Origin: Escherichia phage EP_H11
Length of the DNA stretch: 64,000 bases
Sequence record: OP688485
Direction: 5' to 3' (one strand)
Shown: piece after piece, positions 53,933 through 54,133 of the stretch
Position numbering within the stretch: the stretch's first letter is position 1
Layout of the letters: each line of letters begins with the position of its first letter
Program-made: the position numbers and the translations under genes
Notes under the pieces: generated by a model
Database searches by the model: none
What the model was told of the DNA's origin: nothing
The model's input: the letters and a program-made list of their open reading frames with translations, nothing else

Positions 53933-54133
53933 CCAGGGGACTTAGTGTAGCTATCTGCCTGCGTATCGCGTAGCAGAACGAGGTAAAGCCCGAAGTGGCT
54001 TTAGTGAGTGATGCAGGGGTAGGCTCGGGTGGCGCAGGCATCTCATCCGGTAGGATTGGTGAAAGCGGAGGTCGCGCCGCCCTGAAGGCGGGCGCGACTC
54101 CTTCGCTCTCTACTTTGACTAATTGGGATAAAG
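53933..54133 (+). ncRNA. candidate structured RNA element, copy B
   Basis: Shares ordered blocks with 3679..3925; the GC-rich hairpin differs in sequence but keeps pairing (GCGGCGGCT/AGCCGCCGC vs GTCGCGCCGCC/GGCGGGCGCGAC). Confidence 0.35.

Follow-up and report, generated by a model that had tools for sequence, protein, structure and literature searches.

What is the structured element that stands twice in the DNA of Escherichia phage EP_H11, each time some distance ahead of a gene, and could it be part of the messenger RNA (mRNA) of that gene? The DNA studied was a 64,000-nt window, meaning the whole stretch that was analysed, of the 111.4-kb EP_H11 genome (record OP688485). A sequence-only reading of this window had marked 53933-54133 as the second copy of a duplicated structured element, preceded by a promoter copy and possibly forming the 5′ leader of a glycosyltransferase mRNA. 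The marked stretch corresponds to the element as bounded by a covariance model, plus a 28-nt tail, on the transcribed strand. The element is ~175 nt long and both of its copies lie on the + strand, at 3730-3903 (copy A) and 53931-54105 (copy B). Judged by the comparison of their variants, the copies are paralogues that have diverged from each other, and the structured RNA domain they represent, encoded on that strand, has not been described before. The variants make up a new family of structured RNA, its fold well supported by covariation, that is so far limited to a rare phage group.

The duplication far exceeds chance. The variant set comprised 10 distinct variants from related phages and metagenome contigs; besides EP_H11, copy B variants came from phage vB_EcoM_IME392 (IME392), ENA contig L008 and Logan contig L009, and copy A variants from IME392 and nine metagenome contigs (L010-L018). 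Copy A variants alone, with the four-helix structure described below, went into a covariance model (R1) that found copy B at 71.4 bits (E = 8.9e-18), with no other match in the window; a second model (R2) scored copy B at 150 bits. With R2, exactly two copies were found in the EP_H11 window and two in the whole IME392 genome, and the element was present in every recovered contig spanning a copy site. IME392 (116 kb) was also the sole match in the phage collection for the non-coding regions of copies A and B (92% and 98% identity). EP_H11 and IME392 have been grouped with RP13/YerA41/SP-15-like phages, with hypermodified thymidine predicted (PMC12686479; bioRxiv 10.1101/2025.03.26.645540). A search through the helicase neighbour gave relatives L006 and L007 (78% and 53% identity; samples SRR10902858 and SRR15882663), both on contigs that end before the element, and the glycosyltransferase-like protein encoded after copy B, 100% identical to an EP_H11 protein, is represented by one 90% cluster only. 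Three other proteins of the window had no entry in exact look-ups. In IMG/VR, searching for exact patterns of the conserved core yielded chance matches in GC-rich coding DNA or none, and two pattern scans of JGI metagenomes and one of GTDB genomes gave no further members.

Four helices were derived from the variant alignments: a long-range helix (P1), a long hairpin (P2), a short hairpin (P3) and a GC-rich hairpin (P4). The large, asymmetric, purine-rich junction closed by P1 has strands, YCGCGUA and AGGGGNAGGCUCGGGUGG (J2/1), that are nearly invariant, and P1 itself occurs in four complementary versions, ACCUUGC/GCAAGGU (copy A), GGUUAGUC/GACUAACC (L011), UGCCUGCG/CGCAGGCA (copy B) and GCCUACG/CGUAGGC (L008). 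The base of P2 covaries as well, GGGU/AUCC in copy A vs GCA/UGC in copy B, and an internal P2 pair is A-U in two variants and G-C in the rest. This pair and the adjoining C-G pair are flanked on both sides by 5′-GA/5′-GA appositions, possible tandem sheared G.A pairs to judge from their sequence. P3 reads AUCC-GGUA-GGAU in copy B and CUCC-GGA-GGAG in copy A, its closing pair passing from A-U to C-G, and in P4 8 of the 13 pairs differ on both sides between the copy types. On the alignment fitted to the covariance model, from which covariation was counted, 97.9% of the cells in helices of the 10 variants are pairing, and double-sided changes are found in 23 of 42 pairs compared with 1-4 in slid controls, a value reached in 0 of 500 shuffles. 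RNAalifold independently recovered P1, P2, the top of P3 and P4.

The unpaired strands tell the other half of the story. Between copies A and B, J2/1 is identical in 17 of 20 columns and J1/2 in 8 of 10, compared with 4 of 7 for P1, 11 of 27 for P3 and 12 of 36 for P4. Conservation of the junction strands beyond that of the helices is the pattern expected of an RNA whose junction contacts something. In the 5′ single-stranded segment, AGGGG and GUAG are invariant in 10 of 10 variants. Two pairings for this segment were tried and rejected: a closing helix between the 5′ AGGGG and CUCC after P4 has 5 bp in copy B and just 3-4 bp in copy A, and pairing of the 5′ GUAG region with J1/2 is out of register between the copies. 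The RNA was assigned to the + strand because its wobble pairs (9 of 363 cells) read as G.U on that strand, and because genes and promoters are oriented the same way.

Some of the variants differ in ways that helix covariation does not describe. Among close variants of copy A, the P4 loop (3880-3886 in copy A; L002, L010, L012, L013, L015, L016 and L018) occurs in both orientations, TGGCAGA being the reverse complement of TCTGCCA and TGGCGGA that of TCCGCCA. The inversion presumably reflects DNA-level recombination or template switching at the inverted repeat, and it implies that the loop sequence is under no strand-specific constraint. In copy A variant L011 (2741-2915), a divergent and structurally equivalent patch of ~100 nt replaces P1, J1/2, the P2 base and J2/1 between flanks that are near-identical to other copy A variants, which suggests recombination with a third, unsampled element type; the divergent copy A comes from sample SRR13089957.

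The element is considered non-coding because indels of 1 and 2 nt in the conserved core, A vs B, break any reading frame; the open reading frames (ORFs) within it are short and none is common to both copies. In Rfam 15, even at E up to 10, no family was found at either copy: the only matches were tRNAs at 52453-53296, none falling within 53900-54200, and the sole match in the copy A region was a chance microRNA match at 3661-3724 (E = 6.4). Neither the ROOL (RF03087) nor the GOLLD (RF01998) model matched, again at E up to 10, no Rfam model for 6S, Y-RNA-like RNAs or the known riboswitch classes matched the element, and no tRNA cloverleaf was called at copy A or copy B by ARAGORN or Rfam RF00005. 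Likenesses to a tRNA-like RNA, 6S, a T-box, a CsrB-like sponge, a CRISPR-repeat mimic and a 5S loop-E mimic, each resting on a short motif, were rejected, since either no model matched or the motif was not kept from copy to copy. Host mimicry was rejected as well: E. coli genomes showed no similarity to the element, and plasmids gave just three short marginal matches (E = 0.5). If the fold and the conserved junction are functional, the element would represent a class of structured RNA that is new, in phages that have hardly been studied, with its two paralogues as a built-in comparative handle and the junction as a target for finding its partner.

The two copies occupy equivalent places. In each case the element makes up the 3′ domain of an extended, well-folded untranslated region, after which come a single ORF and the next promoter; the order is promoter 2822, two small ORFs, a 530-nt intergenic region, a 77-aa ORF and promoter 4219 for copy A, and promoter 53603, a 630-nt leader, a 263-aa ORF and promoter 55074 for copy B. 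These promoters are copies of a 47-nt motif (CCGCTCTTT, 11 nt, TCGAAAGGCTGTTAAA / TCGAAAGGCTGTTAAAGTG) that occurs 12 times in the window (2822-61314), always on the + strand; it has a TGnTAAAnT stretch resembling an extended -10 and is without a -35 element, and its position before genes marks it as a putative promoter. The weight matrix used below was derived from these 12 copies. As the earlier reading had stated, a promoter copy lies upstream of copy B, at ~285 nt compared with the ~290 nt given there, the 9-bp hairpin said to precede the copy is present, and no promoter copy intervenes before the ORF at 54280, none being found in 53649-55074; the glycosyltransferase assignment of that ORF is borderline (Table 1).

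Between each element and its ORF there is neither a promoter copy nor a canonical terminator, and the start codons lie 85 nt (copy A) and 175 nt (copy B) from the element. For this reason the location of copy B within a 630-nt leader of the 54280 mRNA, as the sequence-only reading had proposed, is the simplest transcript model, and it fits the promoter map. The ORF after copy B is glycosyltransferase-like, in a phage with predicted thymidine hypermodification, and other phages have homologues of the 77-aa product in a module of DNA modification and replication, next to QueC/QueD/FolE and a weak DpdA-like gene; this is a weak hint that both downstream ORFs may have to do with DNA modification. 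Long 'empty' intergenic regions of this sort (here ~0.5 and 1 kb) are probably RNA genes or elaborate leaders and not spacers, which bears on the annotation and engineering of such phages.

The 3′ flank of copy B holds a further signal, from which the earlier reading had drawn a common origin, or a common binding factor, for promoter and RNA. It had described the 5′ half of the promoter motif, lacking its 3′ half and fused to a nested hairpin (GCTAAG...GTACTC-CTC-GAGTAC...CTTAGC), and both features are there. Of the 8 exact copies of CCGCTCTTT in the window, that at 54142-54150 alone stands outside a full promoter motif. The 5′ half at 54137 scores 17.0 bits, level with true promoters and ranking 5-6 among ~128,000 positions, and it is beyond chance because this score equals that of real promoters; the 3′ half is absent (-15.6 bits), and the full matrix gives -10.8 bits vs at least 43.8 bits in the 12 true copies. 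Common ancestry or a shared factor is nevertheless not supported, because the half-site lies outside the fold (32 nt past the last helix and outside all covarying parts), is absent from copy A, where the best 5′-half score in the flank is 2.2 bits, and is not intact in IME392, which has a 1-nt deletion inside it. The GAGCG strings in P2, potential partners of CGCUC, are already engaged in the internal covarying pair, which also counts against a shared factor. More probably the half-site is the relic of a promoter, or else a copy of the upstream box standing by itself.

The nested hairpin is kept in IME392 and L008 and is a weak terminator-like site: in a loose terminator scan only its inner hairpin (54163-54177) passed, with the tail GCTTCTCTTA, and P4 was not called as an intrinsic terminator (GC-rich hairpin and U-tract) in copy A or copy B. 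The string AUUAGAUAA with G-rich bases follows the P4 tail of copy A (3913-3926) and recurs after the nested hairpin of copy B (54190-54204), and AAUUGGGAUAAAGG, a weaker version of it, lies directly 3′ of copy B P4. Homology between A and B thus reaches beyond the fold, since the AUUAGAUAA string recurs downstream of both, and relative to copy A the half-site and nested hairpin of copy B look inserted.

Given the parallel layout of the two units, the lack of a promoter copy or canonical terminator before either ORF and the weak DNA-modification hint, we tentatively favour, at less than even confidence, a cis-acting, factor-binding leader RNA that would set expression of the downstream cistron. 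In such a leader the domain would act as RNA and in cis, on a transcript that for copy B probably starts at the 53603 promoter. A trans factor, for which a phage or host protein is the likeliest candidate and a small molecule a less likely one, would dock at the conserved junction and the G.A-rich helix, and occupancy of this site would control the transcription or translation that reaches the one downstream cistron, by way of P4, the hairpins after P4 or mRNA stability. The element shares with riboswitches and protein-binding leaders, such as ribosomal-protein leaders, a conserved junction, covarying helices and a place upstream of a same-strand ORF, and with the protein-binding leaders also purine-rich internal loops of the kind that proteins recognise. 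It differs from both in that no class matches, no recognisable expression platform was found and the downstream genes have no detectable common family.

That last difference is one of several points that weigh against a cis leader. The 77-aa homologues sit in unrelated phages without the element upstream, and in the possible Acinetobacter relatives described below the downstream gene differs again. P4 has no U-tract, and no conserved alternative pairing that could serve as an expression platform was found; an 8-bp alternative helix of copy B, GGUGGCGC with GCGCCGCC, is not kept in copy A or L008 on a reading of their sequences. A structured untranslated region (UTR) of 530-630 nt far exceeds the need of a simple operator and looks more like an RNA product itself. 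The covariation, counted on a model-fitted alignment, stems from only a few lineages that are independent (the A/B split, the L011 patch, L008 and IME392); it amounts to few independent events because, leaving aside the A/B split and the recombinant patch of L011, all known members are closely related.

Several of these points bring another possibility close behind, nearly as likely as the cis leader: a stable processed non-coding RNA (ncRNA) acting in trans. The element would then be the conserved 3′ domain of two long structured RNAs, cut from or ending within early or middle transcripts, with P4 guarding the 3′ end, and might for instance sequester or decoy a host or phage protein, as a small analogue of the orphan phage RNAs found beside tRNA islands. 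The unrelated downstream genes and the 77-aa homologues that occur without the element are consistent with this, as are the GC content of the element (0.60-0.61 vs 0.448 for the window), the entire intergenic regions, which fold better than shuffles, and the strong terminal hairpin that closes the element. Families of trans-acting small RNAs typically include paralogous pairs in which the single strands are conserved and the stems vary. What speaks against a stable product is that the 860 nt upstream of copy A contain no promoter copy for it, that no intrinsic terminator was found after P4 and that ROOL, GOLLD, 6S, Y-RNA-like and other Rfam models do not match.

Location is part of this comparison. 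Copy B lies ~630 nt downstream of a tRNA cluster (52453-53299; Gly, an insert-bearing tRNA, Arg and Met, with tRNA-Met ending at 53299). Small stable structured RNAs, 'species 1 and 2', lie beside the tRNA genes of phage T4, where they are co-transcribed and processed with the tRNAs; their function is not known. By description the element is unlike these, as copy B is separated from the tRNA cluster by a promoter copy, and copy A lies in another part of the genome. ROOL and GOLLD are large ornate RNAs of phages and prophages with no known function, often found by tRNA islands, and one GOLLD was originally identified 3′ of a tRNA-Met (PMC12286853). The element resembles them in being phage-encoded and highly structured and, for copy B only, in lying near a tRNA island; transcripts carrying it also resemble GOLLD in having a conserved 3′ region and a variable 5′ region. 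Unlike ROOL and GOLLD, it has a common domain of only ~175 nt, a copy away from tRNAs and two paralogues per genome.

A wider form of the same idea, which we regard as doubtful, is that the element is the core of a new phage ncRNA class, the 3′ domain of ~0.5-1 kb transcripts from phage-specific promoters beside a tRNA island, common to EP_H11/IME392 and to the Acinetobacter phages Ab1-TPeters and vB_AbaM_3098, and trans-acting on a host or phage factor as an analogue of ROOL/GOLLD. Both Acinetobacter phages have the GCUCGGG core, as GGGUAGGCUCGGG in vB_AbaM_3098 (13 nt identical to the copy B junction) and GGGGAGUGCUCGGG in Ab1-TPeters, and the same order of features, namely tRNA-Arg(tct), tRNA-Met, promoter-like AAAGCTGTTTAAAGTGTCG, 300-400 nt, the element candidate and a gene. 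In Ab1-TPeters the promoter 3′ half recurs as this AAAGCTGTTTAAAGTGTCG (L029, ~19505-19535), and such conservation between phages of different hosts suggests that the phages encode a factor, or an RNA polymerase, that recognises the motif. The best model match in Ab1-TPeters, at 19921-20044 (L029; searched in a tRNA-containing non-coding region with filters off), is at noise level (5.9 bits, E = 0.18), as is that in vB_AbaM_3098 (0.6 bits). The consensus fold of the Acinetobacter pair bears no resemblance to P1-P4, and a scan of IMG/VR for Acinetobacter-type patterns gave 64 chance loci, none of which has the second motif. The Acinetobacter link is a lead, not a finding, on this comparison.

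Return to a role in cis brings in two readings that we consider improbable. One is antitermination of the put/nut type, in which the nascent RNA, one copy per unit, would bind the polymerase for read-through of downstream hairpins. HK022 putL/putR and lambda nutL/nutR have the same two-copy layout of promoter, site and gene. The element is like them in its two diverged copies per genome, each on the transcribed strand past a promoter and before a gene, and in its covarying stems; put and nut are indifferent to downstream gene content, as the element would be, so that unrelated downstream genes are expected here. The weak terminator-like nested hairpin between copy B and its ORF is in keeping with such a role, as are the RNA polymerase beta- and beta′-like genes of this phage group, listed in the IME392 annotation. 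However, such a hairpin follows copy B only, with no terminator-like site between copy A and its ORF, and 12 promoter copies in the window make long read-through seem unnecessary. The element is also set apart by description, since it has four helices around a large conserved junction and, with its 175 nt, is much larger than put (two stem-loops, ~70 nt) or nut (boxA/boxB).

The other, which we give equally little credence, is a small-molecule riboswitch, with the junction as ligand pocket and P4 and the later hairpins as expression platform. Conserved junction strands with covarying helices are an aptamer-like pattern, the element is upstream of same-strand ORFs and both downstream genes may be linked to DNA modification; against this, the known classes are unmatched, a U-tract terminator and a conserved alternative pairing are both wanting, and the start codons are distant (85 and 175 nt). 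A DNA-level element, such as a replication origin, primosome assembly or packaging site working through hairpins extruded from single-stranded DNA, is very improbable: copy B does lie just upstream of a replication gene block, AT-rich DNA is found 3′ of both copies and the P4 loop in both orientations marks a DNA-level hairpin event, but both copies are on the same strand, the purine-rich junction conservation is strand-specific, the wobbles (few as they are) are G.U only on the + strand, and freely changing helix sequences suit RNA structure over a protein-bound duplex site.

Table 1. Positions in the window of the parts of copies A and B and of their flanking features
Feature	Position	Strand	Remarks
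Upstream structured part, copy A intergenic region	3460..3729	+	folding z-score -3.28
Copy A P1	3753-3759 with 3833-3839	+	
Copy A P2	3770-3813	+	
Copy A P3	3841-3864	+	
Copy A P4	3866-3899	+	
ORF downstream of copy A, 77 aa	3989..4222	+	promoter copy 4219 at its end
Promoter-motif copy	53603..53649	+	58 bits; likely start of copy B transcript
Upstream structured part, copy B UTR	53650..53930	+	folding z-score -2.05; includes 9-bp hairpin
9-bp hairpin TTGACGAGG/CCTCGTCAA	53854-53862 with 53879-53887	+	
Copy B 5′ single-stranded segment	53935..53955	+	AGGGG, 7 nt, GUAG, linker; partner not found
Copy B P1 5′ strand UGCCUGCG	53956..53963	+	pairs with 54033-54040 over 8 bp without mismatch; covariation against copy A, L011 and L008
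Copy B J1/2 UAUCGCGUA	53964..53972	+	unpaired
Copy B P2	53973..54014	+	GCA/UGC base; two GA/GA flanking two Watson-Crick pairs; UAAAGCC/GGCUUUA; loop CGAAGU
Copy B J2/1 AGGGGUAGGCUCGGGUGG	54015..54032	+	most conserved unpaired strand
Copy B P1 3′ strand CGCAGGCA	54033..54040	+	pairs with 53956-53963
Copy B P3 hairpin	54045..54056	+	AUCC-GGUA-GGAU
Copy B P4 hairpin, GC-rich	54067..54101	+	without U-tract after
Orphan promoter 5′ half ACUCCGCUCUUUCG	54137..54152	+	weight matrix
Nested hairpin	54152..54189	+	GCUAAG (54152-54157)/CUUAGC (54184-54189) around GUACUC-CUC-GAGUAC (54163-54177)
Downstream ORF, 263 aa	54280..55071	+	borderline glycosyltransferase-like; Pfam PF04488 (Gly_transf_sug) 22.6 bits vs cut-off 23; promoter copy 55074 directly after

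Genes in the window run on the + strand at 1-12009 and from 50090 on, and on the - strand between. Within the tRNA cluster, 52534-52618 is a fourth tRNA according to Rfam (52 bits) that ARAGORN did not call; it has 24 nt where the model has an 11-nt anticodon region, and may be an intron-containing or disrupted tRNA. Beyond the cluster, 53306-53338 and 53455-53480 hold T-arm and acceptor-like pieces ending in CCA, CCTCGGTTCGACTCCGAGGAATCACCA and GGGTTCGATCCCCTACGTGGCACCA, at which no tRNA was called and which may be tRNA remnants or tRNA-like minihelices. The content of this region varies among close relatives (52320-52972 and 53279-53475 compared with L008 and L001): two blocks (~650 and ~200 nt), and with them tRNA-Gly, the insert-bearing tRNA and tRNA-Arg, are missing from L008; copy B is kept in all.

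Two further local structures were seen. At 51901 (+), a promoter copy shares bases with a partial 3′ half (51892, 17.9 bits) that lies inverted on the - strand, making 51892-51947 locally palindromic. Upstream of copy A, 3557-3635 could form an H-type pseudoknot, in which GUAAUGC (3557-3563) would pair with GCAUUAC (3606-3612), interleaved with a helix of AUAGGGCAC (3569-3577) and GUGUCCCUAU (3626-3635).

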